DNA of 64,000 nucleotides from a virus, in the IMG/VR virus record IMGVR_UViG_3300021961_008157; one strand, given 5' to 3'. A model generated the notes under the pieces. That model did not search any database. It was not told the DNA's origin and saw only the letters and a list, made by a program, of their open reading frames with translations. Position 1 is the first letter of the stretch; each line of letters starts with the position of its first letter. Below, piece by piece: positions 2,055 to 51,243 of the stretch. The position numbers and the translations under genes were made by a program.

Positions 2055-2144
2055 TGGCGGAAGCGGTGAGATTCGAACTCACGATACCGGTTAAGGTATG
2101 ACGGGTTAGTAATCCGTTGCCTTCGGCCACTCGGCCACGCTTCC
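2055..2144 (-). tRNA. tRNA-Ser (anticodon ACT)
   Basis: cloverleaf GGAAGCG...CGCTTCC-G-CCA, long variable arm, anticodon loop TTACTAA, TTCGAAT T-loop. Confidence 0.9.
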
Positions 2145-2641: not shown

Positions 2642-2643
2642 GT

Positions 2644-2659
2644 TAAATTATTTATGGTG
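2644..2659. repeat. 16-bp direct repeat, copy 1 (copy 2 at 4306-4321)
   Basis: TAAATTATTTATGGTG identical at both sites. Confidence 0.8.
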
Positions 2660-2695
2660 CACTTAATTGTATTTGAATAAACAAAATACTTAATT

Positions 2696-3304
2696 TTATT
2701 TTATTTTTTTAATTTTTAAAGCATACGGGTTAACATACACACCCGGAGATGTGATACTTTTTCTAACAGCACTTCTTGGACCAATTTTAGTATCGTCACA
2801 AATTGTTACATTATCCATTATTAATACATCTGTAGATATAAAACAAAAATTTCCAATTTTTACATTGCCGCCTACTAAAACAAATCCTGATAAAAAACTA
2901 CCATTGCCTATAGAAACATTTTCTGCAAATGCACAGCCCCCGTGTATAATACAATCTTTGCCTGTGGTTAGGTTATACCATCCGGACCCTTGATATAAAA
3001 AACTCCCGGGTCCAATGGAACAATTGTTATATGTTGTGCCGGGCGCTGTTGAGTTATGTAGATAAGAAAACCTATCATGATTTCTTTCATCTAACAATGA
3101 CGATACCAACTTACGTTCTACAAAGTCTTTGGTTATAAGATTAATATATTGATAGTCTTGAGAAGAACTGCTTATAAAGTCAGATGGATTAATTCTTGTA
3201 ATAGATAATGATGGATCCTCATAATGAATGTAATTAGACAAAACTTTAAAAGTGGCAGTTTCGTAACTGATAGCTGCCAGCGGTTTACTATTTTTTATAA
3301 TCAT
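2696..3304 (-). CDS. hexapeptide-repeat acetyltransferase (PglD/NeuD-like)
   Basis: left-handed beta-helix repeats (SIGPGS, SIGNGS, KIGNFC, TICDDT, KIGPRS). Confidence 0.75.
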   Translation of the reverse strand: MIIKNSKPLAAISYETATFKVLSNYIHYEDPSLSITRINPSDFISSSSQDYQYINLITKDFVERKLVSSLLDERNHDRFSYLHNSTAPGTTYNNCSIGPGSFLYQGSGWYNLTTGKDCIIHGGCAFAENVSIGNGSFLSGFVLVGGNVKIGNFCFISTDVLIMDNVTICDDTKIGPRSAVRKSITSPGVYVNPYALKIKKIK

Positions 3305-3309
3305 TGACG

Positions 3310-4299
3310 TTATTTAACAGACACAACCAGGATACCGTTATTACCACCAAACCCAAAACTACATTTTAAAAAAGTTTTTTTTGATGAATCGTTGAAATTA
3401 TCAATTGCAGCAGCAAGTTCCACCAAACTGCTGGCGCCAAGTGTATGACCAATTTTTGATTTGTAAGATGTAATTGGAATGTTTGGAAGTATTTTACTGT
3501 GTAATTCAAGTTCAACACTATCACCTGCTGGTGTTGCTGTAGCATGTGCATCCCAATAACTAAAATCTTCTTTAGAAATTCCTGACTTAGATATAGTATT
3601 TTCAATTAAATCTTCTAACTTTTCAATATCAGATGGATTTGTTGGGTGTGTTGGAATTGTTTCATACCCTAAACTTTCTATTATTGCTTTTGTTTTTAAG
3701 TTGTGTTCTTCGGCAAAGTTTGTTGACGATACTATAATTGCTGCTGAACCATCGCCAAGCATTATGCCGCCGACGTTGCTATCCATTGGAGGTGCCCAAG
3801 TATCCGCTTTCGAAGTTGCCCCAATGCTGTTAAATATGTGCTTCATAAATTCGATGGAAGCAACTTCGGCTGATATAATTAGTGTTAGGCCCGAGTCGTT
3901 TCTTTGTGCTAATTGCAATGCCTTAATGCCCGAGGCACAGGCCGACAAAACACTAAACATATCTATGTTTGAACTTAACTTAGGATATAACCAAGCTAAA
4001 TCAACTACACCTAAGTATTGCAATGCTTTTGACGGTCGTGATCTGGCGCGACCTTGATTTATATTTTTATGTACTTCATCAACTGCGGTACTATCATTAT
4101 ATGTACCTGCAACAATAATGGTATTAATAAGTGGTAATAAATGATCTGGTAACTCGGACAATGCTTTTTTCAGCAAATCAGAATAAGATAAATTTAATGG
4201 TATTACCCAGCCCTGCTCGGTTTTTACAGGGGTTGCATTTTCAGTCACAGCATCTACATGCTTACTGTACAAAATAGACAACTTGGTTGGAATAATCAT
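3310..4299 (-). CDS. beta-ketoacyl synthase (FabF/FabB-like)
   Basis: SACASG, DAHATATPAGD, KSKIGHTLGAS and SFGFGGNN motifs. Confidence 0.85.
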   Translation of the reverse strand: MIIPTKLSILYSKHVDAVTENATPVKTEQGWVIPLNLSYSDLLKKALSELPDHLLPLINTIIVAGTYNDSTAVDEVHKNINQGRARSRPSKALQYLGVVDLAWLYPKLSSNIDMFSVLSACASGIKALQLAQRNDSGLTLIISAEVASIEFMKHIFNSIGATSKADTWAPPMDSNVGGIMLGDGSAAIIVSSTNFAEEHNLKTKAIIESLGYETIPTHPTNPSDIEKLEDLIENTISKSGISKEDFSYWDAHATATPAGDSVELELHSKILPNIPITSYKSKIGHTLGASSLVELAAAIDNFNDSSKKTFLKCSFGFGGNNGILVVSVK

Positions 4300-4305
4300 T
4301 TATTG

Positions 4306-4321
4306 TAAATTATTTATGGTG
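4306..4321. repeat. 16-bp direct repeat, copy 2; overlaps tRNA-Leu 3' end
   Basis: identical to 2644-2659. Confidence 0.8.
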
Positions 4322-4399
4322 GGCAAGGAGAGACTCGAACTCTCACTCCGAGGAACTGGCTTCTAAGACCAGCGCGGCTACCAATTACGCCACTTGCCC
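4317..4399 (-). tRNA. tRNA-Leu (TAG)
   Basis: cloverleaf, anticodon loop CTTAGAA, extended variable arm, encoded CCA. Confidence 0.95.
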
Positions 4400-4407
4400 A
4401 TTAGTAT

Positions 4408-4436
4408 ATTGTAGTTGATTTTTTGTAGTTTGTCAA
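4408..4436 (-). promoter_or_regulatory. sigma70-type promoter for tRNA-Leu
   Basis: TTGACA-N17-TACAAT. Confidence 0.6.
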
Positions 4437-4442
4437 GTGTAT

Positions 4443-4516
4443 TGGAGCGGGATACCAGAGTTGAACTGGTGACTTGTCCTTGGCAAGGATATATTTTACC
4501 CCTAAACTAATCCCGC
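4443..4516 (-). tRNA. tRNA-Gly (GCC)
   Basis: cloverleaf GCGGGAT...ATCCCGC-T-CCA, loop TTGCCAA. Confidence 0.93.
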
Positions 4517-4533
4517 TTTCGTTTATTTATTGG

Positions 4534-4609
4534 TGGCTCCTCGACCTGGGCTCGAACCAGGGACCTACGGATTAACAGTCCGGTGCTCTACCAACTGAGC
4601 TATCGAGGA
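4534..4609 (-). tRNA. tRNA-Asn (GTT)
   Basis: canonical cloverleaf, loop CTGTTAA, CCA. Confidence 0.96.
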
Positions 4610-4616
4610 ATATAAT

Positions 4617-4680
4617 TGGTTCGGTTTGTCTGACACTTAACCAATGAACTCTAGAATTCATTACGCTAAATTTCAAACCC
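4617..4680 (-). ncRNA. unclassified 64-nt hairpin RNA ending in ACCA
   Basis: helices GGTTTG/CAAACC, TTAGC/GTTAA, AATGAAT/GTTCATT; 3' ACCA; TAAATA just upstream (4685-4690). Confidence 0.4.
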
Positions 4681-4728
4681 AGGGTATTTAACCCGCGACA
4701 TCAATACACCGAAAGGTTTTGATGCGTG

Positions 4729-4790
4729 TCCTTGATAGCATCACTGCTATTTCGTCCTTGTTACGTTGGACTCATCAGAAGGATAACGTT
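4729..4790 (-). ncRNA. type I hammerhead ribozyme
   Basis: TCCTT-CTGATGA-GTCC(loop)GGAC-GAA-ATAGCA(GTGA)TGCTAT-C-AAGGA: complete core, three stems, AUC cleavage triplet. Confidence 0.9.
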
Positions 4791-4793
4791 GTT

Positions 4794-4868
4794 TGGTGCG
4801 CCCGGGGAATTCCGACATCCCGACCCAGCGATTATGAGTCGCTTGCTCTGCCCCTGAGCTACAGGCGC
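4794..4868 (-). tRNA. tRNA with CAT anticodon, probably Ile2 (lysidine type)
   Basis: anticodon arm AGCGA-CTCATAA-TCGCT resembles Ile2 tRNAs; atypical T-loop GTCGGAA; CCA. Confidence 0.8.
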
Positions 4869-4908
4869 ATATTATAGAAAAGCTGACCGTCAGCTTATAT
4901 ATAACAAA

Positions 4909-4920
4909 TTTTAAAGAACA
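4909..4920 (-). promoter_or_regulatory. boxA-like antitermination element
   Basis: TGTTCTTTAAAA matches rrn boxA GYTCTTTAANA; upstream of the tRNA run. Confidence 0.6.
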
Positions 4921-4994
4921 GTTGCATCAGTATTTTGCCGTTATAGCAAACCTCTCACTCGTTTGAATGACACAGTCACACTCTGACACAAAAA

Positions 4995-5225
4995 TGCTCT
5001 GCGTCCCCCGGCGGTAATTATACTGCATCAACGTAGCCCACAGACAGGACCCACCGCATCACACACAGCCTCCACCCGCTTCCCGACAGGGACCGTTCTC
5101 GCATTGCCAGCGCCGGTTAGGTTGGACCGCATCTTTCGACGTAAGACTATTATGTCTTAGAACCACCCGTGGCTATCACACCACTTCAATCCTCCGGGTC
5201 AGAGTAGCCGTTGATTAAACGGCAC
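4995..5225 (-). ncRNA. large unclassified multi-stem structured RNA (~230 nt)
   Basis: GC-rich with no ORF; closing helices CTCTG/CAGAG, CCCGG/CCGGG, GGTGGTT/AATTACC; internal hairpins including CGTC-GAAA-GATG; consensus promoter directly upstream. Confidence 0.7.
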
Positions 5226-5246
5226 GGTTTTTACTGTCTAAACGTT

Positions 5247-5275
5247 ATTATATAACAAATTTGATTTAATGTCAA
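5247..5275 (-). promoter_or_regulatory. sigma70-type promoter for the ncRNA/tRNA operon
   Basis: TTGACA-N17-TATAAT. Confidence 0.75.
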
Positions 5276-5310
5276 CCGTTTTTGAAGCTGAGGAACCGAT
5301 AAATATTGTC

Positions 5311-5592
5311 ATGATTGAAGAATATACCGCATTGATTACCGATCATGGGTTCCCGGTTGTTGCCGCTCTTGCGGGTGGATACTTCATCTTTTTAACCATT
5401 AAATTCATTCTTCGTGGTGTTACTGAAAACATACGGGGACTAAAGGCAAACATTCAAGCACTAGAGCGACGTATTACTGTGATGAACAATGATATGAAAC
5501 GCATAGACATCGCAGTCAGTAGAGTACTAGGCGTAGAAGCTGATTTAGACACTATTTCAAGATCCGAGCCCGACGATCGGAGAAAAGACTAA
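5311..5592 (+). CDS. small membrane protein with coiled coil (holin-like; paralog of next gene)
   Basis: GFPVVAA single TM plus coiled coil; start at 5311 follows TAAATA (5300-5305). Confidence 0.65.
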   Translation: MIEEYTALITDHGFPVVAALAGGYFIFLTIKFILRGVTENIRGLKANIQALERRITVMNNDMKRIDIAVSRVLGVEADLDTISRSEPDDRRKD

Positions 5593-5870
5593 TGTCGCCT
5601 TCAGAGTTGGTAGCTCAGTACGGTTTTCCAATAGTAGCAGCAATAGGAATGGCCAGCATAATATATTATATTTGGATATGGGCAACAAACGAAGCCGGCA
5701 CTATACTAGATGAAACAAACACTACACTGATACGATTAATTGATCGCATACGAGTATTAGACAACGACATGATTCGATTGACTCAGAAAGTAAACGTGGT
5801 AACACAACTTAAATCAACGCTGATTGACAAAGAAAATATCAAGTTTATTGATACTGTAAACAAACTATAA
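5592..5870 (+). CDS. small membrane protein with coiled coil (holin-like)
   Basis: GFPIVAA TM; RIRVLDNDMIRL is similar to the preceding ORF. Confidence 0.65.
   Translation: MSPSELVAQYGFPIVAAIGMASIIYYIWIWATNEAGTILDETNTTLIRLIDRIRVLDNDMIRLTQKVNVVTQLKSTLIDKENIKFIDTVNKL
5840..5870. repeat. 31-bp direct repeat, copy 1
   Basis: CAAGTTTATTGATACTGTAAACAAACTATAA identical at 6593-6623. Confidence 0.9.
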
Positions 5871-5881
5871 CAAGGAGTATT

Positions 5882-6529
5882 ATGAATCTAGCATACTTGC
5901 CAATAGATATTCCTACTCCTATTCTTAACGAACAGAAAATAATAGATTGGTTTGAATCTCACAAATTAATAGATCAAGATTATTTGGAGTACCGCCAAGG
6001 CCAGCATGCCTGGGCTACGGTTTCAACCTGTACACTTCCTAAAGACTGGCGTAGATTTGATAACAAAATGTGGGCTAATCGTAGACAGGAAAGCAACAAC
6101 AATGGAGTATTATTTCATCCCGGGTTTGAAGATATATTTCCGGAACTAGCAAGTTGTATTAAACAACTGCCTTTTAAACAATTAACAGTTAGTAAAATGT
6201 TGTATCAACTAAATGAAATTCCTGCTCACCAAGATGCTCCTGATCATAGAAATCCATCTGAGCCTAGAAGATATACTATATACTTAACTGCACCGGAGTA
6301 TAATACGTTTTATGTTTCTAAAACTGCTAATAGTGAAAAGATATTAATTAAAGTAGATCCTGAGTATTCGTGTTTTGTTTTTAATAATACTGATTGCTGG
6401 CACGGTGCATTAAAAAATGATCGGCCTAAAATTATCTTAACTACCGCAGGTATTTTAGACAATGAAAAACACGAAGCATTATTGGAAAGAAGTCTAAAAA
6501 AGTTTAAAAATCAAGCAATATACTTATGA
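5882..6529 (+). CDS. putative Fe(II)/2OG oxygenase-like (cupin) protein
   Basis: HxD (HQD) and distal WHG; AGGAG RBS. Confidence 0.55.
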   Translation: MNLAYLPIDIPTPILNEQKIIDWFESHKLIDQDYLEYRQGQHAWATVSTCTLPKDWRRFDNKMWANRRQESNNNGVLFHPGFEDIFPELASCIKQLPFKQLTVSKMLYQLNEIPAHQDAPDHRNPSEPRRYTIYLTAPEYNTFYVSKTANSEKILIKVDPEYSCFVFNNTDCWHGALKNDRPKIILTTAGILDNEKHEALLERSLKKFKNQAIYL

Positions 6530-6612
6530 AGTACCATTATTATTACAACAATATTCCAGGACAAGGACTATGTAGAAATAATCTCATCTACACAAGTTTA
6601 TTGATACTGTAA
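6526..6612 (+). pseudogene. truncated gene fragment (MKYHYYYNNIPGQGLCRNNLIYTSLLIL*)
   Basis: ATGA-coupled start; frame ends inside the second 31-bp repeat copy. Confidence 0.5.
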
Positions 6613-6623
6613 ACAAACTATAA
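6593..6623. repeat. 31-bp direct repeat, copy 2
   Basis: identical to 5840-5870. Confidence 0.9.
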
Positions 6624-6965
6624 TTTACTTAACCCTATCTCTGCCAGATCAACAGTGGCATAAATGTCAAATACTTGATGCATCCGCATGAGTTCAAATA
6701 GTGCTTGAACCGGGCGAGACATACCAGCGAGTGCCAGCTGCTGCCTATAATCAATACTTGAGCGCAGTAAACTGATCAGCGAGCCTAAGCCACTGCTGTC
6801 AATAAACTTGACCTGTTCCATGTCCAATACCACATGCTGTATGCTGCCATCTCCTGCCAAGTGATTTAATACCTTTTGTTTGAACTCACTGGCGTTTACA
6901 ACAGTTAGTTCGCTGACTGTGAGGGTAATGACGGTGACTGTACCTTGTTTTTTTACATTAAACAT
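6618..6965 (-). CDS. STAS-domain anti-sigma factor antagonist
   Basis: VVLDMEQVKFIDSSGLGSL STAS signature. Confidence 0.9.
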   Translation of the reverse strand: MFNVKKQGTVTVITLTVSELTVVNASEFKQKVLNHLAGDGSIQHVVLDMEQVKFIDSSGLGSLISLLRSSIDYRQQLALAGMSRPVQALFELMRMHQVFDIYATVDLAEIGLSKL

Positions 6966-6992
6966 AATTATATAACACTGATGTCGCTGCTG

Positions 6993-8849
6993 TTAAAAGT
7001 TATATTTTGCCGCAACATAAAAGGTCCTGCCTAATTGAGCATAACCCGATGGTTGCTCATATTTTTTATCAGTAATGTTATTTATTTTAAAACTTACTGT
7101 TAATTTTTCGTTAAACCACGATTCTTCAATGAAGAAATTATAAGTTGCTACACTATCGGCTTGAAAACGTGCAAATGTTGTACCATTTAGGTCATACATT
7201 TGTCCCATATAATTTGCTGACAGTCCAACTTTGAGATTGGGTTTTGCATGCCAAACAGCATGTGCATTACTAGACCACTGTGGGCGTCTTAGCTTTTGCA
7301 TACCTAAACTATCAATGCTGTTATTATATGTTGTATTGGTCTTTATCTCAAATTGATTAAAGCGTTTTTTAAGTGCAACCTCAACACCTTGGCTGCTCGA
7401 TACACCTGAGTCATTTTGATATGTAGCAGTAAATGTGCTTGAGTCATACACATATGCAACGGCATCTTTGGTCTTAATATAAAAGAATGTAATATCAAAC
7501 CAATCTTGTTTGTAACCAACTTCGTATGAAACGCTGCGCTCTGGATTAAGATTCGGGTTACCACTAAAACCAAAATTATCTACACCGTATAGTTCATAAA
7601 ATGTGGGCAAGCGAAAACCATTTGCTACTGATGCTTTAAAGCCATGATAGTAGCCACCAATTCGGCCAGTTAAATAACGATTATATTTTGTATTGGTATC
7701 GGCCCTGGCAGATATGTTTATTAACTGGTCTTTGTTAAACTTATATACGCTATTTGCAAATAGTGCATTATTTGTACGGCTTGAGTCTACAGTAGAAACA
7801 TACCCACCACTGGTGGTATCAATTTTTCCTGCTGTGTTTGAAAATTCATAACCAGTTGTAGTTTCGAATTTGTTAGACATTGACCAAAGTTGTGTAACTA
7901 AAACAGTATTGTTTACGCTATTAAACTTATCAATGCTGCCTTGATTATTATATTTTCTATCATGCATGCTGCGATTGTAAATTATTTTAGTACGATCATT
8001 GCTTGCACTTGCTTGAAAATTGCGCCAGCGCCAGTTGGCTGTATAGTTGTCAACATCTGCATTGCTGCTGTCTAAATTTGTAATGTTGTAATTTTGAATA
8101 TAGCCTGTGTAATAAGTCCAATCATTGGAAAACGTTTTTTGCTGTAATGCAAAGTTGTTAAAAGAATATGGATCGCGCTCACTACCACTGGCATGTACGC
8201 TAATGTTATCAGACTTTTCGTGTTCACCTTCAAAGCTGACAATGGTGTCTTGCAAACGATGCCCTAATTTAACTTTCTTGTTAAATGTTTTGTTGCTGCC
8301 ATAACTGGCCAAAACATAATTATTGGCAGTTACTGATGTGGTCATGTCAATAACACCGGCAACAGCATTTGCACCATACAAACTGCCAGCAGGCCCTTTA
8401 ATAACGCTCACACGATCAAGTCCAACTGATGAATGTTGGCTGATATCGTCGGCCCCGCTCACAGTACTTTCATCTCTAATAGAAATGCCATTTAGTGTTA
8501 GTAGTGTATGATTCGAGTCTGTTCCTCGCAAAAACAAACTGCTACTTTGCTTGGTAGTACCATTTTGCATGATGTTCATGCTAGTTGAATTAGACGTAGA
8601 TTCTTGTATGGTTCGGAATGGATCTAAATAAACAGTATTCCAGGTATAGGTACTACTAGCTTGCTCTGTAGGTGTTCTTGCTAAAACAATAGTAACACGA
8701 TATGGTTCTAAATCAACATTGGTTACATGTTGCCCGGCAACATAGACTGTTGTTAAAGATGACAGTTTGCCAACTTTTTTTATTTCATCTGCATGTGTAT
8801 AAGCAGACAAAAACAAAACAAACAAAATTACTGGAAGTTTTTTTATCAT
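6993..8849 (-). CDS. TonB-dependent outer-membrane receptor (BtuB-like)
   Basis: signal peptide; plug motifs LRGTDSNHTL and VIKGPAGSLYGANAVAGVI; NPNLNPE; C-terminal GRTFYVAAKYNF. Confidence 0.9.
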   Translation of the reverse strand: MIKKLPVILFVLFLSAYTHADEIKKVGKLSSLTTVYVAGQHVTNVDLEPYRVTIVLARTPTEQASSTYTWNTVYLDPFRTIQESTSNSTSMNIMQNGTTKQSSSLFLRGTDSNHTLLTLNGISIRDESTVSGADDISQHSSVGLDRVSVIKGPAGSLYGANAVAGVIDMTTSVTANNYVLASYGSNKTFNKKVKLGHRLQDTIVSFEGEHEKSDNISVHASGSERDPYSFNNFALQQKTFSNDWTYYTGYIQNYNITNLDSSNADVDNYTANWRWRNFQASASNDRTKIIYNRSMHDRKYNNQGSIDKFNSVNNTVLVTQLWSMSNKFETTTGYEFSNTAGKIDTTSGGYVSTVDSSRTNNALFANSVYKFNKDQLINISARADTNTKYNRYLTGRIGGYYHGFKASVANGFRLPTFYELYGVDNFGFSGNPNLNPERSVSYEVGYKQDWFDITFFYIKTKDAVAYVYDSSTFTATYQNDSGVSSSQGVEVALKKRFNQFEIKTNTTYNNSIDSLGMQKLRRPQWSSNAHAVWHAKPNLKVGLSANYMGQMYDLNGTTFARFQADSVATYNFFIEESWFNEKLTVSFKINNITDKKYEQPSGYAQLGRTFYVAAKYNF

Positions 8850-8880
8850 TATAGTACTGTTTAAATAAATTTTATTTCAA

Positions 8881-8958
8881 TGGCGCGACTGGAAGGATTC
8901 GAACCCTCGACCCTGGAGGTAGAAGCTCCATGCTCTAATCCAGCTGAGCTACAGCCGC
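8881..8958 (-). tRNA. tRNA-Arg (TCT)
   Basis: canonical cloverleaf, loop CTTCTAC, CCA. Confidence 0.95.
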
Positions 8959-15456: not shown

Positions 15457-16347
15457 TTATGCAAGACTTGTGTATAAGTGTTGTTGCAAGTTTAGTTTAA
15501 GACCGTGCTCAATGCAATACTGTCCAACATACTCGTGATTGCGTTGATTTGCTTCGAGATTTAATAAACCTGGTTCCCAGAAGCTGATAACTTCGTCCAC
15601 TGTACTACGCTCTGTCATGGTAATCTGTCCCTTCTCTGCTCGCAATAGTTTAATCTTTTGCGGAAAACTATTATAAACATTCATTGGACTTACATAGATA
15701 TCTCGACCTGTTTGTTCCTTCCACTCAAGTGCCCAATCTGGCACTTCGGCGTATGGACTGCCTTCAGTTGCTTCCATAACAAATTTTAAGCAATTGGCAC
15801 GTTCAAGAATTGTTTTGCTGGGAGCATAATATCTAACTGCCTTGCCTTCCTTCTCCATACACTTTGGAGAGCATACTAGCGTTACGCCTAGTGGCACATC
15901 AGTAGATAAAATGCCATTGCTTTCAACCTGAACTGCTTTAAACTTGGGCAGTTGCTGCCGCATGAACTCGCTGATGTTGTCTTGTAACAGCGGCTCACCA
16001 CCTGTCATCACTAATACAATGTTGGGAAAATCAACCAATCGTGTGTTTATATCTGCAACAGGTACAGCCCACAGTGGCACTAGTTTGCCTTTACTGGTCC
16101 AGAAGCTGGTGATAGTGTCATACATTTTGCGTTCAATGTCCGCAAACGTCATCCAGTCACCGTCGTCAAAGAAAGTGTCACAAAATGAGCAATCTAAATT
16201 ACATTTAGCCAGTCGAATGAATAGCGCAGGTTGACCAGCGAAAGGCCCCTCACCTTGTAGGGTGAAGAACATACTGGTTACAAAAAGTTTTTCAGGTTCT
16301 GTATCCTTGAAGAACTTCTTCCCTATGATTTCATTAGTACCAAACAT
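15457..16347 (-). CDS. queE: 7-carboxy-7-deazaguanine synthase (radical SAM)
   Basis: FFTLQGEG, CNLDCSFCDT (CxxxCxxC), TGGEPLLQ, ESNG, CSPK, LQQH. Confidence 0.9.
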   Translation of the reverse strand: MFGTNEIIGKKFFKDTEPEKLFVTSMFFTLQGEGPFAGQPALFIRLAKCNLDCSFCDTFFDDGDWMTFADIERKMYDTITSFWTSKGKLVPLWAVPVADINTRLVDFPNIVLVMTGGEPLLQDNISEFMRQQLPKFKAVQVESNGILSTDVPLGVTLVCSPKCMEKEGKAVRYYAPSKTILERANCLKFVMEATEGSPYAEVPDWALEWKEQTGRDIYVSPMNVYNSFPQKIKLLRAEKGQITMTERSTVDEVISFWEPGLLNLEANQRNHEYVGQYCIEHGLKLNLQQHLYTSLA

Positions 16348-16975: not shown

Positions 16976-17328
16976 TATTTTTTCTGTCCTTTAAGAATAT
17001 TCCATGCATTGGTTTTTTCCAATAACTGTTTTTCTAATTTTCTATATTGGTCACCCAACTGCTTTAGCTCATCCCACTCTTGCTCTAATTCTGGATTTGG
17101 GTTGAGTAAGGCCAATCGAGATTCGATATTTTCAATGGCTTTCAGCAAACTTTTGTCCCCGACTGTAATATCACAACCATCCTTGAGTGTAATACCTTCA
17201 TCCCCAAATTGTACTGCTTGTTCGGAATAATCATTCCATGTAACACTCCCAGATGCATATTCGGTGTTGATAGAATAAGTTGTGCTGTCGTCCAAATTAA
17301 TAGTTAATGTATCAAGTGTGTCAGTCAT
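16975..17328 (-). CDS. hypothetical coiled-coil protein
   Basis: start at MTDTL with ATGA overlap. Confidence 0.65.
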   Translation of the reverse strand: MTDTLDTLTINLDDSTTYSINTEYASGSVTWNDYSEQAVQFGDEGITLKDGCDITVGDKSLLKAIENIESRLALLNPNPELEQEWDELKQLGDQYRKLEKQLLEKTNAWNILKGQKK

Positions 17329-18110
17329 ATAGTTACCTTTCTTGCCTTTACCAACAAGTGCCAACCTAAGTACTCTCTCACCGCTTCTCGCATGGCTCCG
17401 GGCATAGCTTCAAACCAAGGCTCAAGTTCATAGCGTCCTTGCTTGTACGCTTCTACATTATACATGAAACAGTGGTCCTGACGCAACCGCTCAATAGAAA
17501 AGCGATTCCCTAGCAAGTCGGCGATATCATCTTTGGTGTAGCTTTTAGCATATGGGCAACCAGCTTGCGCTTCATATTGGTCAAGCCCTTTGTTGATCAT
17601 TGCTTGTTTCCAACTATTTTTAGCATAAACCATAAAACGGAATTCTCCATTGGGTTTAAGAATATTGTACACATTGTCAAGTATACGATCAATGGCTGGG
17701 AAATGATGTATTACCCCATAGCTGTAAACCAAGTCAACAGGAGGTATTTGATTGTAAGTGTTCCAATCGCTGGCGTCACCTGAATAAAAATTACCTGCTA
17801 GCCCCTCAACTTCGAAACGCTGTTGCGCCAGTTTAACACTGGCTTCGCTGTAGTCAATAGCATAATAGTCAGCACCATGGCGGGCAAATTCAGCAGCGTC
17901 GGATCCAATACCAGGACCGATTTCTAATACCTGCTGCCCTTGCCACAAGTGAAATCCTGCAAATTCTGGAATGTGGGGCTCCACAAGAAACCGGCGAGCC
18001 GACACTTCTTGGAAAAATTCGAGACTGCCAACGGCGTTTCCGCTGTGGCGAATATTACAAGGCTGATTGTTCCAGTATTGTTTGATGCGTTCTTCTAAAC
18101 TTAGCGTCAT
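17325..18110 (-). CDS. class I SAM-dependent methyltransferase
   Basis: VLEIGPGIGSD, DLVYSYGVIHH, LKPNG. Confidence 0.85.
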   Translation of the reverse strand: MTLSLEERIKQYWNNQPCNIRHSGNAVGSLEFFQEVSARRFLVEPHIPEFAGFHLWQGQQVLEIGPGIGSDAAEFARHGADYYAIDYSEASVKLAQQRFEVEGLAGNFYSGDASDWNTYNQIPPVDLVYSYGVIHHFPAIDRILDNVYNILKPNGEFRFMVYAKNSWKQAMINKGLDQYEAQAGCPYAKSYTKDDIADLLGNRFSIERLRQDHCFMYNVEAYKQGRYELEPWFEAMPGAMREAVREYLGWHLLVKARKVTI

Positions 18111-18934
18111 TTTTGTTTTGCCCAATCAGGTTTCCACTGAGACATTTGATTGTTTATATCATTGACTTTTAACTTTTCCCAAGGGTCCTGTTTACCTGTA
18201 AACACTCCTTGAAAAAAATCAGTGTTTAAACCACGAGACTTCATGTATGAAGCCAATCGGTGTAAATCCGCTATGCGTTTTCTATACCAGTTTGCATGAT
18301 GGAAGTCCCGTGGATCTTCGGGATTGCCCTCTAGCATCGGCCGTGTTTCAAATATGCTGTCTTTGTTATTGCCAGTTAAATCATATCTATCATGCGTCAC
18401 ATGTACATTTATACGTTCCCATATATCCATTACATAAGCCTGTTGGCTGATCCAAGCATCGCTGATTTGGTGGGGACTTAGATAGCCAAATAACTCAAGC
18501 CACTCGCGGGGCACAATGGGAAAAATGCTGTAAGGATGATCGCGATGTGTGTGAAAAGCTAATATTTTAAATTCACCAGTATGGTTGGCTATTACAGTAT
18601 CCCAACCCGGCGTTTCCATTACAGCATCGTCATTCCAAAATACCAACCAATCAGCGTCGGCGCTTTTTGCTAGGCTGTTTACATACTCGTTTAGTCGAAT
18701 ATAGCCCAGTGGTTCAAATATACGAGCTTGATAATTTACACCAAGCTCGTCTAACTTAGGCTGTAGTGTTTGCTTAAAATAGTCAATGGTTTCTGTATCG
18801 TCGCGATCGAACCCAATTAGCACTTGAAACGAATCAACATTGTCGGCTGTGTTTACAACACTTAGTATACTGCGCTCAAGTGCGGCTGTTCTGCCTCTAG
18901 TGGGCAACAGTAATGCTATGTTGTATTCACTCAT
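18107..18934 (-). CDS. glycosyltransferase family 2
   Basis: LLPTRGR N-terminus and WNDD (DxD-like) motif. Confidence 0.75.
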   Translation of the reverse strand: MSEYNIALLLPTRGRTAALERSILSVVNTADNVDSFQVLIGFDRDDTETIDYFKQTLQPKLDELGVNYQARIFEPLGYIRLNEYVNSLAKSADADWLVFWNDDAVMETPGWDTVIANHTGEFKILAFHTHRDHPYSIFPIVPREWLELFGYLSPHQISDAWISQQAYVMDIWERINVHVTHDRYDLTGNNKDSIFETRPMLEGNPEDPRDFHHANWYRKRIADLHRLASYMKSRGLNTDFFQGVFTGKQDPWEKLKVNDINNQMSQWKPDWAKQK

Positions 18935-19894: not shown

Positions 19895-19961
19895 TTCTCC
19901 TATGTTAAATTATAGCATAGGCAGCAGAATTTGTATACCGGGATGATGCTCTAAGACCGGT
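19895..19961 (-). promoter_or_regulatory. candidate preQ1-I-like riboswitch with RBS-sequestering hairpin
   Basis: P1 ACCGG/CCGGT, loop starting U and ending C, A-rich tail ATACAAA, P2 TAGAG/TTCTG, then CCTATG/CATAGG overlapping AGGAG. Confidence 0.5.
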
Positions 19962-19973
19962 GCAATACTTTAT

Positions 19974-20357
19974 TTATTTGCGATAGTTGCCCTTGCCGGG
20001 AATTGTGTTTCGCACACCCCCAACCGGATCCTCAACATCACCATTTCGGCGAGGGATTAGATGCACATGCGGCCAATTGACCGTTTGTCCTGCTGGAGTT
20101 CCATAATTCATACCAATGTTAAACCCATCGCATTCGCCCGATTCAACCATACGCTGGCCTTCTGTGAAAGCATTGTCAATTGCTTCCAGTAATATGTGTT
20201 TCATGTTAAACTTGGGCACAAACAACAAGTGTCCCGGTGTACATGGATACTTGTCTAAGTATACTGCCACACGATAGTTTTCCCGCACCAAATCGGTCCA
20301 TGGTGCGGTACTTTCTTCGATTGATTCAGGTATGTCTTTGAATATATGCGTTTCCAT
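19974..20357 (-). CDS. HIT family hydrolase
   Basis: AGQTVNWPHVHLIPR, PGHLLFVPK. Confidence 0.88.
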   Translation of the reverse strand: METHIFKDIPESIEESTAPWTDLVRENYRVAVYLDKYPCTPGHLLFVPKFNMKHILLEAIDNAFTEGQRMVESGECDGFNIGMNYGTPAGQTVNWPHVHLIPRRNGDVEDPVGGVRNTIPGKGNYRK

Positions 20358-20358
20358 T

Positions 20359-23022
20359 TTACAATGCCAACTTATACAACAGCCCAATTTGACCAGTGCC
20401 GTCTTGCCCGTATGTTGCTGAAAAGTTCAGGGAGTGATTCCGTTTTACATAATCATAACTAGCACCCACAAAGGCCAAATTTGAGTTACGAATTTTGCTG
20501 TTTACATTTGAGTAGTGCATAACACCGCCGGCATCCACACTGGTTGGAACAGTTAATGCTACAGATCCGCTTACAACTGCTGGGCGAATACCTCCGTACA
20601 AATTGATGTTTTGATCCCTCCAACCAGCCATTGCGTAAACACTACGAACAGGTGTTACACGAGTAACCATACCATAGTTGTATTGCCCAACAGTATTCAT
20701 AACGCCTGCTTGTGCCCAACTACCAGTACGTTCGGGACTGTACATTACATTAAACTCGGCAGTAGTAGAACCGGTGCTTTGCCCCCACATGCCCGAGAAG
20801 TTGATCCAGGGATTGCGATCTGTTTGCGTAACAGTCACTTGGTACTGTACAGGTTGATAGTTAGGATCAAATGCTTGACTGCTTACACCAACACTGATGT
20901 TAGCACCCGAGCCGCTAACGGACAAGCCATTGTTGGTCATTACAGATCCTGCAAAGCGGCTGCTCCAACTTTGTCCCGGTGTGTGTTTCAAATAGTGTAG
21001 CGGCTGCGACGAGGACGCAACAGCCGGAGATAAATCAACTATAAAATCTCTTTGGAAACTGTCCACAGCCGACACCGATGACAACACAGAGGATACTGTA
21101 GCATCTACACCGCCTGAAACGCTCAAAGAGCCACTAAGTGGAGCAGTAGTACCTGTGCGACCAGTTACGCTGATACCCAAATCTCCCACTGGTTGTGTAG
21201 CACGATTTAGATCCAGCAAGCCTTGCCCCATTACGTTGACATTATAGTTGGGTAGATTTTTGTTGGCAGTTTTCAACAGCAACTGAACAATTTGATTGCC
21301 CTTCATATAAGGCCACAGTTGGTGTACAATTGCCGCGGCTCCCGAAACTGCTGGTGCCGCAAAACTGGTACCACTGCTGGTCCTATATAAACCATTGTAG
21401 TCAACCGTTTCAATGGCCACGCTGGGCGCCATAATGAAAAAGTCGGAAGTGCGATATTGATCCTTACAAACTGAGTCGACTACGACTTTACAAACGTGTC
21501 CAGCACCGTTGCCTTCGGGCGTTTTACTTGTAGAGTTCCAGCCACCTGCAATCAACATCTGACCGTTGAGCAACAAATTTCCCCCAGCATCAGTTGCTGT
21601 AGCAAATACAGCGGGCGACTGGGTGTATTGTAAGCCTTGATTGCCGGCTGCCACAACCAATACCATTTCTTTGCCCAATACTCCTGCCCAGTCAGTGGGC
21701 TTGGCTAGGTTATAGTAGTTGGTTCCGCCATAGTAAACGTGGTTGCTGTAGAAGGTGCCATCGCCCAACCGATACACACTACTCTTATAGTCTGTGCTGT
21801 AATTGGTGTTAGAACTTAAATTGGCCACTACAATGTCGGAGTATTGTTGTGCCCACAGGAGCGCCTTGAGAGCAGACGCCATACTTACACTAGAAGTATT
21901 ACCAATTTTGGCCACAGCCAGATTAGCATCAAATGCTACGCCATACATTCCCTTGCCATCACGTGCGCCGGCAGCAATAGCAGCCACTTGACTACCGTGC
22001 CCCACAACGTCTTGAATACCTGTGGTAGTATAATCAACGGTGTATTTGATTTTGCCGGCAAATTCACTGCCATCAATATCGATACCAGTGTCCATAACAA
22101 GAATAGTGGATCCTTTACCAGTCCAACCTCGGGCATACGCATAGTTAGCACCAATGGCACTGATGGTTTTGCCTGCCTCCCCTGTTAGATAGTAAGCAGG
22201 ATCGCGACTGGGCACTGGTGTTGGAGTACCCATGTTTGTATTGTTATAGTAAGTTGATGCATTAAAATTAGCATCTACTGTAGTAGGAGTGTCCGGCGCT
22301 GTTGTTGTTTCAGTGGTTGTGGTTGTGGGTCCACTGATAACAGTAGTGGACACAATTTCTTTGGCTGTAAGTTTTCCATCAACGTAAGTGTATTGCCATC
22401 TTTGTGATACCACACTACCATCTGCTAATGTCGCAGTTCTAGTAACATAAGAATATCGGATCACTGGTTCTGCAACCACCGGTGCAGGCTCTACCACCGC
22501 TACTGGTTCCGGTGCAGGAGCAGGTGTTACAACCGTTGTGCTGTCAATGCTTTTGTCAGTTAGTTTTTCGTCAGTATAGGTATACTTCCATTTTTCTGCA
22601 ACAACGCTACCATCGGCTTGTGCTACAGTTTTGGTGACAAACGCATATCTAATAACTGGCACAGGAGTTGGCGGCACTACCATCGTGCTACTAACTACGT
22701 TACGAGCAGTGATTTTACCGTCTGTGTAGGTAAGGCGTGTTACTGTTTCAATAACACTACCATCAGCTTGCGTCTTGCGATCAGTGACGTTATTGTAAGT
22801 AATTACTGGTGCTTTTACGCCTAATACTGTTTCGCTAACAACCGTTTTGGCTCTAAGTTTGTTGTTAACATAAGTGTATTGCCATCGTTGGACCACGGTG
22901 GTGCCATCGGCTTGTTTGACTTTTCGTGTTACATATGAGTAACGAGTGACGTCCGCTGCCAACGCAACAGAAACAACTGCCACTAACAATAGCCCTACCA
23001 AAAACTTAACAAATCGACTCAT
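20359..23022 (-). CDS. secreted subtilisin-like S8 protease with N-terminal repeats and C-terminal beta-barrel-like domain
   Basis: signal peptide; triad VMDTG, GHGSQVA, GTSFAAP; AAGN; four ~42-aa repeats. Confidence 0.88.
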   Translation of the reverse strand: MSRFVKFLVGLLLVAVVSVALAADVTRYSYVTRKVKQADGTTVVQRWQYTYVNNKLRAKTVVSETVLGVKAPVITYNNVTDRKTQADGSVIETVTRLTYTDGKITARNVVSSTMVVPPTPVPVIRYAFVTKTVAQADGSVVAEKWKYTYTDEKLTDKSIDSTTVVTPAPAPEPVAVVEPAPVVAEPVIRYSYVTRTATLADGSVVSQRWQYTYVDGKLTAKEIVSTTVISGPTTTTTETTTAPDTPTTVDANFNASTYYNNTNMGTPTPVPSRDPAYYLTGEAGKTISAIGANYAYARGWTGKGSTILVMDTGIDIDGSEFAGKIKYTVDYTTTGIQDVVGHGSQVAAIAAGARDGKGMYGVAFDANLAVAKIGNTSSVSMASALKALLWAQQYSDIVVANLSSNTNYSTDYKSSVYRLGDGTFYSNHVYYGGTNYYNLAKPTDWAGVLGKEMVLVVAAGNQGLQYTQSPAVFATATDAGGNLLLNGQMLIAGGWNSTSKTPEGNGAGHVCKVVVDSVCKDQYRTSDFFIMAPSVAIETVDYNGLYRTSSGTSFAAPAVSGAAAIVHQLWPYMKGNQIVQLLLKTANKNLPNYNVNVMGQGLLDLNRATQPVGDLGISVTGRTGTTAPLSGSLSVSGGVDATVSSVLSSVSAVDSFQRDFIVDLSPAVASSSQPLHYLKHTPGQSWSSRFAGSVMTNNGLSVSGSGANISVGVSSQAFDPNYQPVQYQVTVTQTDRNPWINFSGMWGQSTGSTTAEFNVMYSPERTGSWAQAGVMNTVGQYNYGMVTRVTPVRSVYAMAGWRDQNINLYGGIRPAVVSGSVALTVPTSVDAGGVMHYSNVNSKIRNSNLAFVGASYDYVKRNHSLNFSATYGQDGTGQIGLLYKLAL

Positions 23023-23405: not shown

Positions 23406-24113
23406 TTAATAAACCCCTTTACCACCAGCAGATTGCTGTAGTTTAATGTTGTCAAAGAACTCTTTTTTGGTTGCGGGGTCAGTTTGGAACGCACCCTTTA
23501 GTACTGTAGTTTGCGTCAAACTCGAAGTGGCCATTATACCTCTATTGGTGCAACAACCATGTTCAGCACCAATATGAACTGCTACGTTTGATGAGTTGGT
23601 AGCACGAGCAATTTCCCGAGCAATGTCGTTGGCTAGTTCTTCTTGTAGCGTACCACGACGAGCACACCATTGTGCAATGCGAGTGTATTTACTCAGTCCA
23701 ATTAATTTTTCTGCGGCAATGATTCCAATATACGCAACACCAGTCACTGGCTGATGATGGTGACTGCACATGCTGTTCAGTTCACTGCGCACTACTAGCA
23801 TGCCTTCATAGCGTTCATCAGAATCATTGGGAAAGGCTGTAGCATCCGGGGCAGGATCGTAACGTCCACTCATGATTTCGTTAAAATACATTTTGGCCAG
23901 CCGCCGGGCCGTACCTTGGCTGTTGGGATCGTTTTCACGATCAATCAGCAACGCATCTAACACTTGTTCAAATGCTTCTGTTGCTTCGTCAATCAGCAGT
24001 TCTTTGTTGTTGTCTGAAACGTAGTCACTGATATTATCACCAGCCCAAAAACGTTTACGGTCTTTTCGCATTTGTTCGCGTATCACTTGCGACAAATTTT
24101 TTTCTTCATTCAT
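23406..24113 (-). CDS. folE: GTP cyclohydrolase I
   Basis: [27 protein letters not shown]. Confidence 0.95.
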
Positions 24114-24154: not shown

Positions 24155-24183
24155 ATTATACAAGGTATTTAGACAGTTGTCAA
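24155..24183 (-). promoter_or_regulatory. sigma70-type promoter for folE, with embedded TAAATA
   Basis: TTGACA-N17-TATAAT. Confidence 0.7.
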
Positions 24184-24797
24184 TCAACTATAGTAATAGT
24201 TCGTAAATCAGGATAAGGCACAAATACTGGTGCCGGACGATTTTCTTGAAGTCCTTTTAGGAGGGCCAATCCTTGTTGTGCTTCTTCAATTGTGGGCTTG
24301 TAGTGGTAGCCGACATGGAATATTTTTTGCTCAACCCAAGGACTAATAGTCAAATCTCTACCATCATAGCGTTGAGCAAGCAAAGTTTTGTATGCTTCGC
24401 TGTCATCTAATAGGATAGCACCACCACGGCCAATGTGCAATGGTTTGGTATTACCAAAACTCAAACATTGTAGTGTGCCCGATCGATACATGTTTTCCTC
24501 TAGCCGACGTGCGCTATCCCAAATCCTTGTACCGTGGATCTGATACTCGCCTTTCCAAGTTTGCCGATCCTCGTCGAGATAATCATAAACAATGTCCAAT
24601 TTGTGCATGGTCATTGGTATGCTCAAATAGGTAAATGGAGTAAATTCACATTCCTGTATGCGATCATATCGCAAGCAAAGTTCAATAGCATGCGTACAGC
24701 AGTCAGTCATAACAGCATACGGTGCGCCAGCAAACTCGGCTAACTCTTTTTCAAAACGTAGTATTGTATCAAAGATCATCGATTGTACCATGCCCAA
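24180..24797 (-). CDS. short DegT/DnrJ-type PLP sugar aminotransferase
   Basis: FEKELAEFAGAPYAV, DSA, SFGNTKPL, GRGGAIL. Confidence 0.75.
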   Translation of the reverse strand: MGMVQSMIFDTILRFEKELAEFAGAPYAVMTDCCTHAIELCLRYDRIQECEFTPFTYLSIPMTMHKLDIVYDYLDEDRQTWKGEYQIHGTRIWDSARRLEENMYRSGTLQCLSFGNTKPLHIGRGGAILLDDSEAYKTLLAQRYDGRDLTISPWVEQKIFHVGYHYKPTIEEAQQGLALLKGLQENRPAPVFVPYPDLRTITIVD

Positions 24798-25720
24798 GCA
24801 TGACTTATTATGTTATTCAAATTGTATTTAGGTTGCCATCCTGCCACTTGAATAAATTTAGAAGCATCAGCAGTGAGAACAGCTGGATCACCATCCCTTG
24901 CTTGACCAAACACCACAGGAATACTGTGGCCCACAACTGCTTCTGCACCATCAACTATTTCAAGGTTGCTATGTCCTACTGATGTCCCCAAGTTATAAAC
25001 ACCTGCGGGTATTGTATTTTCTAGTGCCATAACATGTGCGCGAGCAATATCTTCTACATGTACATAATCGCGAACACAAGTTCCATCGGGCGTTTCAAAC
25101 TTATTTCCGTTGCAAACAAACTGAGTATTATTTTTTACGCTTTCGAGCACACGAGCAATAATGTGTGTGGCACCGCCTTTTTGCCCGTGCCTTGCGCGAC
25201 TATCTGCACCACAAGCATTAAAGTAGCGAAAAGCCACATAGTCCAAGTTGTAGGCACGGTGATAGCTGGCCAAGGCACGTTCAATTGCGAGTTTAGTTTC
25301 ACCATAAGGACTAATGGGATCAGCAGGATCCACTTCTTGACAAGGAGTCATCACTGGCCGTCCGTATGTGGCTGCGCTCGAGCTGAATATAAATCGTATG
25401 TTCTGTTGCCGGCGACTCCGTATAATGTCCAACATAGCAATGGTTTTAACCACATTGTTGTTGTAATATTCAGCAGGATCGGTCATACTGGGACCAACCA
25501 AGCTGGTGCCAGCACAATGAATGACAGCGTCTGGAAAGTCCACCATCAGTGGACCCAGGCCTTCGACGCTGGCAAAGTCAGCCCTAACAAAGCGATCTAA
25601 TGTAATGGGCAGTTGATGATTTTCACGATCAATGCCGATTACTGTATGTCCCGCATCTTTTAACTGTAGGGCGATTTGGCCGCCGATGTAGCCGCTTACG
25701 CCCGTTACAATTACTTTCAT
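24776..25720 (-). CDS. galE: UDP-glucose 4-epimerase
   Basis: GVSGYIG, SSSAATYG, YGETK, RYFNACGA, DGTCVRDYVHV. Confidence 0.92.
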   Translation of the reverse strand: MKVIVTGVSGYIGGQIALQLKDAGHTVIGIDRENHQLPITLDRFVRADFASVEGLGPLMVDFPDAVIHCAGTSLVGPSMTDPAEYYNNNVVKTIAMLDIIRSRRQQNIRFIFSSSAATYGRPVMTPCQEVDPADPISPYGETKLAIERALASYHRAYNLDYVAFRYFNACGADSRARHGQKGGATHIIARVLESVKNNTQFVCNGNKFETPDGTCVRDYVHVEDIARAHVMALENTIPAGVYNLGTSVGHSNLEIVDGAEAVVGHSIPVVFGQARDGDPAVLTADASKFIQVAGWQPKYNLNNIISHAWAWYNR

Positions 25721-26931
25721 CCTTCAATTCTTACCACTTGGTATTTTTCATGGCTCGCATAATCACGATAGCGATTACCCGCGCGATTCCACTGCTCTCC
25801 CTGCCCTTCAATAATGTCAATCACACGATCAACAGTACCGTCAGTCCAATCACTGATCAAGCCCATGTTGTGATGTGGTGCCCGTAGGAGATTCTGCATC
25901 TTGTGATAAGCATCATCAATGCTCCAAGGAACATACAGTCTATTGGGATCATTGGCAAATGTTTCGGGAAAACTACGATATGCTGGATACAGCACATTAC
26001 AACCTAGTGTGTCCGCTTCGCTTACTGTGTTTGACACCCAGTCTTGCAGCGCACAGTTAAACAATACTCGAGTATCATTCAGCAGAGCATAGTATTGATT
26101 TTTGCTTAGGTTGTCATAAATCTTTAATTTACCTTCGGACTCCAGCTGCCGTGCTCGCGTAACATAATCGGAATTGTTGCTCCGTAACGCACCACCCGAG
26201 TAGATGGCAAATTCACATGGTTCACCGGACAGCTCGCCATACATTTCAATCAAGTCCATGAAAAAGCCGGGCTGCTTTTCCTGATCAAATCGTGCAGCAA
26301 ATCCCACACGTCGCGGACGTTGATCAAATGGTTTAATATTGTCAACGCCACCAATACGCTCCAGCACTTCGGCTTTGCCAAACGCCAGTCCCGAGATATT
26401 GTAGATTGGGCAGTCCCAACCAGCAATGCGCATGTGTGCTACCATTTCTTCGTTGGTAGCAAGTACTGCTCCACCTGATGTGCGCACTAGTTCACATACC
26501 ATCTTTTCATATAAGCCCATCCATTTTGCCATGCCCCAAACATGTACGAAATCATCAGGATCAATGGTCTGAGCAAGACAGCGAACAAAAATCCTAGGAC
26601 GCATAGCAGCATCAACTTGATCCATAATATAAGGCAAGCTCTCAATGCCGGGCTGAAACATATCTTCAAAGTAGACAACATCTTCACCTGTAACTTCTCC
26701 CTTACGCATCATTTGCACCAGATTCATCAGTTGGCTCATACCAAAGTAACTGCGACCGTGTGCATCTAACACTTGGCCCACCGAAATTGACTGCGAGTTG
26801 TCAATCACTGTACCAGGAACATAAACTACATCAAGACCACGGCGATCAAACACCCGCCGGTTCCATTCAGTTAGTTGAAGAGTGTAGCGAGCCTCGTATG
26901 ATTCAAGACCCATGTAGTAGAGTTTTCTCAT
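25717..26931 (-). CDS. GT-B glycosyltransferase (possible DNA glycosyltransferase)
   Basis: ARFDQEKQP and QDWVSNTVSEA (GT4-like); lies within the deazaguanine cluster. Confidence 0.7.
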   Translation of the reverse strand: MRKLYYMGLESYEARYTLQLTEWNRRVFDRRGLDVVYVPGTVIDNSQSISVGQVLDAHGRSYFGMSQLMNLVQMMRKGEVTGEDVVYFEDMFQPGIESLPYIMDQVDAAMRPRIFVRCLAQTIDPDDFVHVWGMAKWMGLYEKMVCELVRTSGGAVLATNEEMVAHMRIAGWDCPIYNISGLAFGKAEVLERIGGVDNIKPFDQRPRRVGFAARFDQEKQPGFFMDLIEMYGELSGEPCEFAIYSGGALRSNNSDYVTRARQLESEGKLKIYDNLSKNQYYALLNDTRVLFNCALQDWVSNTVSEADTLGCNVLYPAYRSFPETFANDPNRLYVPWSIDDAYHKMQNLLRAPHHNMGLISDWTDGTVDRVIDIIEGQGEQWNRAGNRYRDYASHEKYQVVRIEG

Positions 26932-27155
26932 GGACCCACATTCCGATTCAAACGACGAGCATCTTCCAGCCACATGTCGCGAGCATTTTTGCCCTGAACA
27001 AATTTAGTATACTGCTGCCATGCATAACTTTTAAAGTTATACAAGTCGGCTTCGTTGTAGCGATAGCCATAGTCCCGACAAAAGTTCAACAATCGTTCCA
27101 GATCCTCTTGGACTGCATAAACTTTGTTGTTAACTTCGAAATTGGGTTTACCCAT
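26928..27155 (-). CDS. hypothetical protein
   Basis: 75 aa, AGGA RBS, ATGA overlap. Confidence 0.7.
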   Translation of the reverse strand: MGKPNFEVNNKVYAVQEDLERLLNFCRDYGYRYNEADLYNFKSYAWQQYTKFVQGKNARDMWLEDARRLNRNVGP

Positions 27156-51207: not shown

Positions 51208-51243
51208 AAAATCCTTAATGTTGGTTAGTAATATTTACTAACT

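Follow-up and report, generated by a model that had tools for sequence, protein, structure and literature searches.

A conserved pseudoknot in the leader of phage queD-like genes, related in shape to the preQ1-I aptamer and predicted to act as a translational ON switch

The closest described leaders and the phage element

To our knowledge, very few riboswitch classes are known in phages. The leader of phage T4 gene 32 carries a pseudoknot that serves as the nucleation site for a protein in translational autoregulation, and this control represses the gene. The add adenine riboswitch switches translation on: one segment of its aptamer complements the region of the Shine-Dalgarno sequence (SD) and the start codon, and the ligand-bound fold releases the ribosome-binding site (RBS). 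Closest in shape to the element described here is the class I preQ1 riboswitch (preQ1-I); its Rfam consensus, taken from a Paenibacillus match, reads aGuGG-UUCGuAAaCcUC-CCaCu-AUAAAAAACUAAGG. The preQ1 riboswitches described in a 2024 review are all bacterial and all OFF switches; the dinucleotide UC before the 3′ strand of the first stem (P1) is key to preQ1 recognition in type I, its place being taken by AC in types II and III (PMC11625349).

The window, a 64,000-nt stretch of DNA from an uncultured phage (IMG/VR record IMGVR_UViG_3300021961_008157), contains a queD-like gene whose leader occupies positions 19961-19897 of the minus strand, within the 82-nt gap that separates the gene from a HIT-family gene (19974-20357). 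The letters match those quoted in an earlier, sequence-only reading of this DNA, and the 5-bp P1, the C that closes its loop, the A-rich tail and the CCUAUG/CAUAGG hairpin over the AGGAG site that it had pointed out are all present (Table 1). The P1 loop has 15 nt (UCUUAGAGCAUCAUC), the last of which is C19942.

Table 1. Features of the leader and of the associated genes (window positions; alignment A2 is partly pattern-ascertained, A1 is not)
Feature	Position	Strand	Remarks
ATAAATA box	19971-19977	-	9 nt 5′ of P1; candidate T4-late-type promoter element with a putative role
P1 5′ arm ACCGG	19957-19961	-	partner 19937-19941
L1 UCU	19954-19956	-	C19955 invariant in A1 and A2; L1 length variable in relatives
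P2 5′ arm UAG(A)GCA	19947-19953	-	A19950 bulged or mismatched; core GCA/UGC in family register
L2 UCAUC	19942-19946	-	C19942 at the preQ1-I specificity-base position; C invariant in A1 and A2
P1 3′ arm CCGGU	19937-19941	-	partner 19957-19961
L3 tail AUACAAAUUCUGC	19924-19936	-	family form WUAYAAA + YUCUGC, 13 nt
P2 3′ arm UGCCUA	19918-19923	-	CC(UA) doubles as part of the sequestering hairpin
Embedded sigma70-like promoter	19909-19937	-	-35 TATACA 19937-19932; 17-nt spacer; TGc and -10 TATAAT 19914-19909
SD-sequestering hairpin CCUAUG-loop-CAUAGG	19899-19921	-	arms 19921-19916 and 19904-19899; seen in the platform minimum-free-energy (MFE) fold
Shine-Dalgarno AGGAG	19897-19901	-	overlapped by the hairpin; read from sequence
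Start codon AUG	19891-19889	-	QueD-like gene
QueD-like (PTPS-fold) gene, 167 aa	19388-19891	-	Pfam PF01242, 2.9e-14; phrog_2389, 1.9e-35
FolE	23406-24113		window gene
QueE-like radical-SAM protein	15457-16347		window gene

Several traits of the element recall preQ1-I. Both are small H-type pseudoknots with a 5-bp P1 ending in GG/CC, an L2 of about 5 nt and a tail that opens with AUA(Y)AAA, and both precede a gene of the queuosine pathway; the invariant C before the 3′ strand of P1 mostly follows U, giving the UC of type I, and follows C or A in some members. By comparison with preQ1-I, the P1 loop of the phage element is longer (13-19 nt as against 11-12), and its L1 is NCUU, with U, C or A as the first base and an invariant C as the second, instead of the UU of types I and III or UUC. 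While the A-rich L3 of preQ1-I runs straight into P2 (AUAAAAAACUAAGG), the phage tail is 5-6 nt longer and adds an invariant YUCUGC; since this motif intervenes, P2 does not abut the A-run. P2 itself is longer (4-7 bp) and lies further 3′, the SD falls outside it, the expression platform predicts ON rather than OFF control and, among the matches listed, the element occurs only in uncultured phage contigs.

Searches with covariance models draw the same boundary from both sides. At gathering thresholds, the whole window returns six tRNAs and no hit to RF00522, the preQ1-I family (threshold 39 bits). At E ≤ 10, RF00522 has no match in either 501 nt or 88 nt around the element, and the elements of five relatives are not among its matches; a Paenibacillus preQ1-I used as a positive control scores 55 bits. 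Reciprocally, the covariance model R1, which detects the phage element, misses this genuine preQ1-I even with filters off. The element thus fails membership in preQ1-I as the family is now defined, although it is related to that family in shape. Of the class I layout claimed for it earlier, the H-type knot, the P1 topped by G-C, the invariant C and the WUAYAAA tail stand; RF00522 membership does not, and the search with a preQ1 model that had been proposed as a check came back empty in the window. A 17-bit Rfam match to preQ1-II was rejected as it covered only the unstructured flanks and the RBS.

It is quite unlikely that the leader is nonetheless a genuine, divergent preQ1-I member that binds preQ1 or preQ0 and represses queD, as the feedback model of the earlier reading would have it. 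The knot and the GG/CC-topped P1, the UC, the AUAYAAA tail and the Q-pathway gene downstream all speak for such kinship. Against it weigh the silence of RF00522 in the window and five relatives and the failure of R1 on a preQ1-I that RF00522 scores so highly, the additional YUCUGC in L3 and the NCUU in L1, and the position of the SD outside P2, where the competition between P2 and the helix over the SD or AUG (see below) follows ON logic. Moreover, neither QueC nor QueF was found, so that synthesis of preQ0 or preQ1 by the phage is not apparent.

Conservation and covariation upstream of queD-like genes

Relatives were gathered from IMG/VR by a protein search with the QueD-like sequence, which gave at least 593 matches, of which 80 were kept. 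R1 finds the element at all 81 of these protein-ascertained queD loci (80 relatives and the window), its matches at L021 and L058 being truncated by the contig end. A further set (L081-L200) comes from a scan of IMG/VR at the DNA level, blind to genes, for a pattern in which L2 and the tail are fixed and the P1 and P2 positions left free. Of the 120 matches listed, 119 are real elements located upstream of a queD-like gene or its operon, 111 of them immediately 5′ of the gene, and among the matches listed some precede queD homologues that are just 34-38% identical to that of the window. At L183, L133 and L145 one ORF is inserted between leader and queD, the leader still standing at the 5′ end of the operon; judged by eye, the inserted ORFs encode a GIY-YIG homing-endonuclease-like protein (282 aa), a cupin-like protein (113 aa) and a protein of 243 aa, respectively.

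The element is associated exclusively with queD-like genes, and it is single-copy: five relatives, two of which are rated 100% complete (364 and 383 kb), have exactly one element per genome. A pattern scan of bacterial and archaeal genomes gave, among the 120 matches listed, a single one that passed the structural filter, and it looks like chance; blastn of GenBank phages with three versions of the element gave chance-level matches only. The closest cultured queD, 51% identical, belongs to Acidovorax phage ACP17, which has no such leader because its queD overlaps the upstream gene. Rfam 15 holds no family for the element, and full-text literature searches found no description of it. A second, divergent copy (28.8 bits) was seen at L054:1882-1931, and likewise at L064:1871-1920. 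By eye, this copy has an ATAAGTA box upstream, a P1 of ACCAG/CUGGU, in which an otherwise invariant G-C would turn into A-U, and a possible P2 of UGGC/GCCA; it precedes a gene for a 309-aa PRMT-like methyltransferase situated just upstream of the main element and queD, and the motif may thus control a second gene in some phages.

Taken alone, the leader of the window folds no better than its shuffles (z = -0.39); its significance comes from the relatives. In the unfiltered, protein-ascertained alignment (A5), P1 is 99.3% paired and four of its five pairs change on both sides (AU/UA, GC/CG, CG/AU/UA and GC/AU). P2 crosses P1, joining the 3′ part of the loop to the nucleotides directly after the invariant CUGC, and it covaries over at least 18 types of 3′ strand; the pairings include GGCA/UGCC, GGCG/CGCC, GGUG/CACC, GACGC/GUGUC, GACGU/AUGUC, GGCAU/AUGCC, GAUG/CAUC, GGGC/GUCC and ACGUCAU/AUGUCGU. 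Pairing at its core positions is 82-100%, with several types of pair, and sliding the partner by 1-3 columns lowers the overall pairing of P2 from 86% to 30-48%. An alignment-free test agrees: duplexes between cognate loops and 3′ strands average -5.58 kcal/mol, compared with -4.02 ± 0.32 kcal/mol for permuted ones, and none of 20,000 permutations of the 18 3′-strand types reaches the observed value. The leader is hence an H-type pseudoknot that is conserved, covaries and occurs exclusively with phage queD-like genes; conservation and covariation upstream of queD homologues, which the sequence-only reading had named as a check on its candidate, were found across the protein-ascertained loci, all 81 of which carry the element.

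The P2 drawn in that reading (UAGAG/UUCUG) fared otherwise: it has no two-sided pair changes, only 56% of its cells are paired and it performs no better than the slid controls. The supported helix, UAG(A)GCA 19953-19947 with UGCCUA 19923-18, lies 3 nt further 3′. In the window it comprises GCA/UGC in the family register, extendable by UAG/CUA if A19950 is bulged out, with a duplex energy of -4.9 kcal/mol; this GAGCA subtype is common to at least a dozen relatives. The L3 tail is near-invariant at the protein-ascertained loci. As the pattern used to collect L081-L200 specifies L2 and the tail, the invariance of these two segments is partly by construction in that set, although near-invariance of both is also present at the protein-ascertained loci. 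The correlation expected between the lengths of L1 and P2 is absent when P2 is measured as a contiguous helix.

Expression platform, switch logic and promoters

In all of the platform architectures, which number at least four, the 3′ strand of P2 and a few bases beyond it complement the ribosome-binding region. In class a, to which the window belongs, CCUAUG pairs with CAUAGG and hides the SD, and in class d GUCUU does the same with GAGAC; in class b (UGUCAUC/GAUGGCA), class c (GCCAUUG/CAAUGGC) and class e (GCCGUCUU/AAGAUGGC) it is the AUG that is hidden. MFE folds of the platform alone have the 9 nt after CUG paired with the SD (90) or the AUG (61) in 151 of 153 distinct variants. The arms of the class-a hairpin are invariant and show no covariation within the class; support for this hairpin comes from the other classes, where the SD or AUG is likewise the partner of this 3′ strand of P2. 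In preQ1-I, the ligand-bound fold either occludes the SD or favours a terminator; terminator-like sites were looked for here and none was found.

As the 3′ strand of P2 is shared by both helices, the pseudoknot and the occlusion of the RBS are mutually exclusive. Their energies are close: withholding the P2 3′ strand from the platform costs 4.3-7.5 kcal/mol on average, and the P2 duplex is worth -4.8 to -6.6 kcal/mol. In computed folds, pairing of the SD or AUG drops once this strand is withheld; in the window, the off-state fold keeps AGGAG in a helix, from which removal of the 3′ arm of P2 releases it. Two states that are mutually exclusive and, by these calculations, nearly balanced are as expected for a switch and, as in riboswitches generally, a conserved structured 5′ leader is joined here to a platform with mutually exclusive folds. 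Mutual exclusivity means that formation of the knot should free the RBS, which makes the leader a predicted ON switch, a direction of control read from structure alone. The earlier proposal of feedback (OFF) control runs against this competition, in which the knot should turn translation on.

A plausible mechanism can be drawn from these elements. P1 would form as a 5-bp stem and P2 would join the 3′ half of the P1 loop to the bases directly after the WUAYAAA-YUCUGC tail; the 3′ strand of P2 would also serve as the 5′ strand of the helix hiding the RBS, represented here by CCUAUG/CAUAGG over AGGAG and elsewhere by a helix with the start codon. A small ligand could stabilise the knot, upon which the 3′ strand of P2 would leave the sequestering helix and the SD or AUG would be freed. 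Recognition of the ligand probably goes through the invariant C that precedes the 3′ strand of P1; the ligand would then present a guanine-like face and might be, for example, an intermediate of the 7-deazaguanine or pterin pathway. The reading that we favour, and consider rather probable, is thus that the leader is a translational ON riboswitch for a ligand with a guanine-like face. Its logic would be that of the add adenine riboswitch, although an H-type pseudoknot takes the place of a three-way junction and both the ligand and the class of gene differ. The points against this ON riboswitch include, besides the silence of RF00522, the fold of the single sequence and the invariant class-a hairpin, that it is hard to see why a biosynthetic gene would be switched on by the product of its own pathway, should that be the ligand, and that the P2 of the window itself is imperfect, A19950 being bulged or mismatched.

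Covariation and alternative pairing establish an RNA switch and are silent on what triggers it, and this raises the possibility of a structured leader that responds to something other than a small molecule: a protein-binding knot with autoregulation in the style of T4 gene 32, or an element in which translation depends on folding or temperature. Small phage leader pseudoknots can act as protein operators, and ACP17, the cultured phage with the closest queD, is T4-like and encodes RegA. The phage leader further resembles that of gene 32 in that both are small H-type knots located 5′-terminally on the mRNA, the T4 example being one of translational control in a T4-like phage; unlike it, the knot here competes with occlusion of the RBS and its loops are conserved in the manner of a ligand pocket. 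Many unpaired positions of L1, L2 and L3 are invariant down to 34% QueD identity, as is usual for a compact ligand pocket; the arrangement follows that of a known small-molecule aptamer, and the two states differ little in energy, as one would expect if a ligand tips the switch. A ligand-independent leader is for these reasons rather unlikely, and the ON riboswitch remains the better account.

Candidate promoters lie both upstream of and within the leader. An ATAA[AG]TA box precedes P1 in 82 of 152 instances, mostly ending 7-8 nt before it, and a TATAAT-like -10 does so in 69 of 152, its commonest distance from P1 being 7 nt; some loci (e.g., L083 and L097) have a full TTGAcc-16-TGTATAAT promoter. 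Late promoters of the T4 type read TATAAATA, which the ATAA[A/G]TA box resembles. As the upstream boxes end about 7-9 nt before P1, transcription from them, which the sequence suggests, would place the knot at the extreme 5′ end of the mRNA. In class a, a second, sigma70-like promoter is embedded in the element itself, with the -35 (TATACA or TTTACA) in the tail and TGn plus TATAAT forming the hairpin loop. Among the 94 class-a instances, the TGn is present in 83, and a -35 scoring 4/6 or better lies 16-18 nt away in 82; in the -10 hexamer, T1 and A2 are invariant (93 loops), position 3 is variable and T6 is found in 88 of 91. This conservation, seen in about 88% of class-a relatives, has the pattern expected of a -10 box, at the level of sequence. 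The start predicted near 19902 would yield a short mRNA devoid of the aptamer and of the 5′ arm of the hairpin, and the embedded promoter could in this way bypass the aptamer.

The embedded promoter can partly explain the conservation of loop and tail in class a. Taken to its extreme, this explanation leaves no functional RNA structure and reduces the leader to DNA-level signals, namely a promoter of the sigma70 type, with its -35 in the tail and its -10 in the hairpin loop, and a flanking palindromic operator. The TATACA-17-TGcTATAAT of the window, the T1/A2/T6 pattern of the -10 and the TGn in 83-88 of about 93 class-a loci, and hairpin arms that do not covary would all fit; such a reading is very improbable all the same, as it leaves unexplained the compensatory changes in P1 and in the crossing P2, and as P1, P2, the tail and the pairing of the P2 3′ strand with SD or AUG persist in classes b to e, where this promoter is missing. 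Since P1/P2 covariation and the promoter-less classes are beyond its reach, the promoter is best viewed as a layer added in class a to the RNA switch.

Pathway context and neighbouring genes

The sequence-only reading had seen no preQ1 synthesis genes. This holds for QueC and DpdA/TGT, which are undetected, and not for the window as a whole, where FolE, a QueD-like and a QueE-like protein are encoded, with glycosyltransferase and methyltransferase genes between queD and queE. The QueD-like protein scores 32.8 bits against TIGR03367, the NCBIfam QueD equivalog, the cut-off of which is 89. In five relatives, two of them rated complete, neither QueC (PF06508) nor TGT/DpdA (PF01702, phrog_887, phrog_7068) was found over threshold, the PHROG searches having no positive control; the DNA-modification pathway that the earlier reading had placed under the control of the leader is correspondingly in doubt. 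The two complete phages (364-383 kb; G001 and G002, the records of L025 and L044) have a queD module with no detectable QueC or TGT/DpdA. In the window, a tblastn match with the DpdA of phage Iggy (E = 0.32, 51052-51573) was judged spurious, since the ORFs there match phrog_1574 and a cytidyltransferase PHROG. The pathway may end in CDG or in another product.

All 197 leader-associated QueD-like proteins carry the motif SHCxxxHGY, with HGH found at the aligned position of the solved CPH4 synthase 7v0f, and further upstream they have xAYRQW/CFRQW. The HGY was considered as the mark of a different enzyme and discarded: the QueD proteins of ACP17 and Iggy have the same SHCxxxHGY, and the Iggy locus is annotated with QueC, QueE, FolE and DpdA. 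Because Iggy shares it, the motif is a trait of phage-type QueD and not evidence of different chemistry.

A more specific version of the riboswitch reading, which we hold tentatively and rate below the general one, is that of a class confined to phages, either related to preQ1-I or convergent with it, that senses a guanine-faced intermediate (e.g., the dihydroneopterin triphosphate made by FolE, or CDG/7-deazaguanine) and switches on translation of QueD-like proteins in large phages that encode FolE, QueD and QueE and lack a recognisable QueC or DpdA; in the lineage of the window, the internal sigma70-like promoter would let early transcripts bypass the switch. Hundreds of uncultured large phages carry the element upstream of queD; it is missing from Rfam 15 and is predicted to be wired in the opposite sense to preQ1 riboswitches. 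If it binds a ligand, it would represent a new aptamer architecture for the smallest riboswitch fold, show how phages time a 7-deazaguanine or pterin module and help to identify the product of FolE-QueD-QueE sets in which QueC and DpdA are missing. Its small size, about 45 nt, lends itself to direct study by biochemical and structural methods.

The window has further features. A cluster of six tRNA genes occupies 2058-8958 of the minus strand (2058-2144, 4320-4399, 4446-4516, 4537-4609, 4797-4868 and 8884-8958). An 887-aa protein encoded at 20359-23022 (minus strand) has a predicted protease domain (phrog_3677) and, in its N-terminal part, several repeats of a motif of ~45 aa (RYSYVTR...QADGS...W.YTY..KL). 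Sugar-modification genes flank queD and folE on both sides (24180-26973 and 17325-18934, minus strand); the flanks include a DegT-like aminotransferase fragment, an NAD-dependent epimerase/dehydratase and two methyltransferases. The gene at 25717-26973 has weak GT-B glycosyltransferase-like matches below the Pfam cut-offs, that at 18107-18934 matches a glycosyltransferase PHROG, and some of the flanking genes have counterparts beside queD, folE and queE of ACP17 (gp122, gp124 and gp125).
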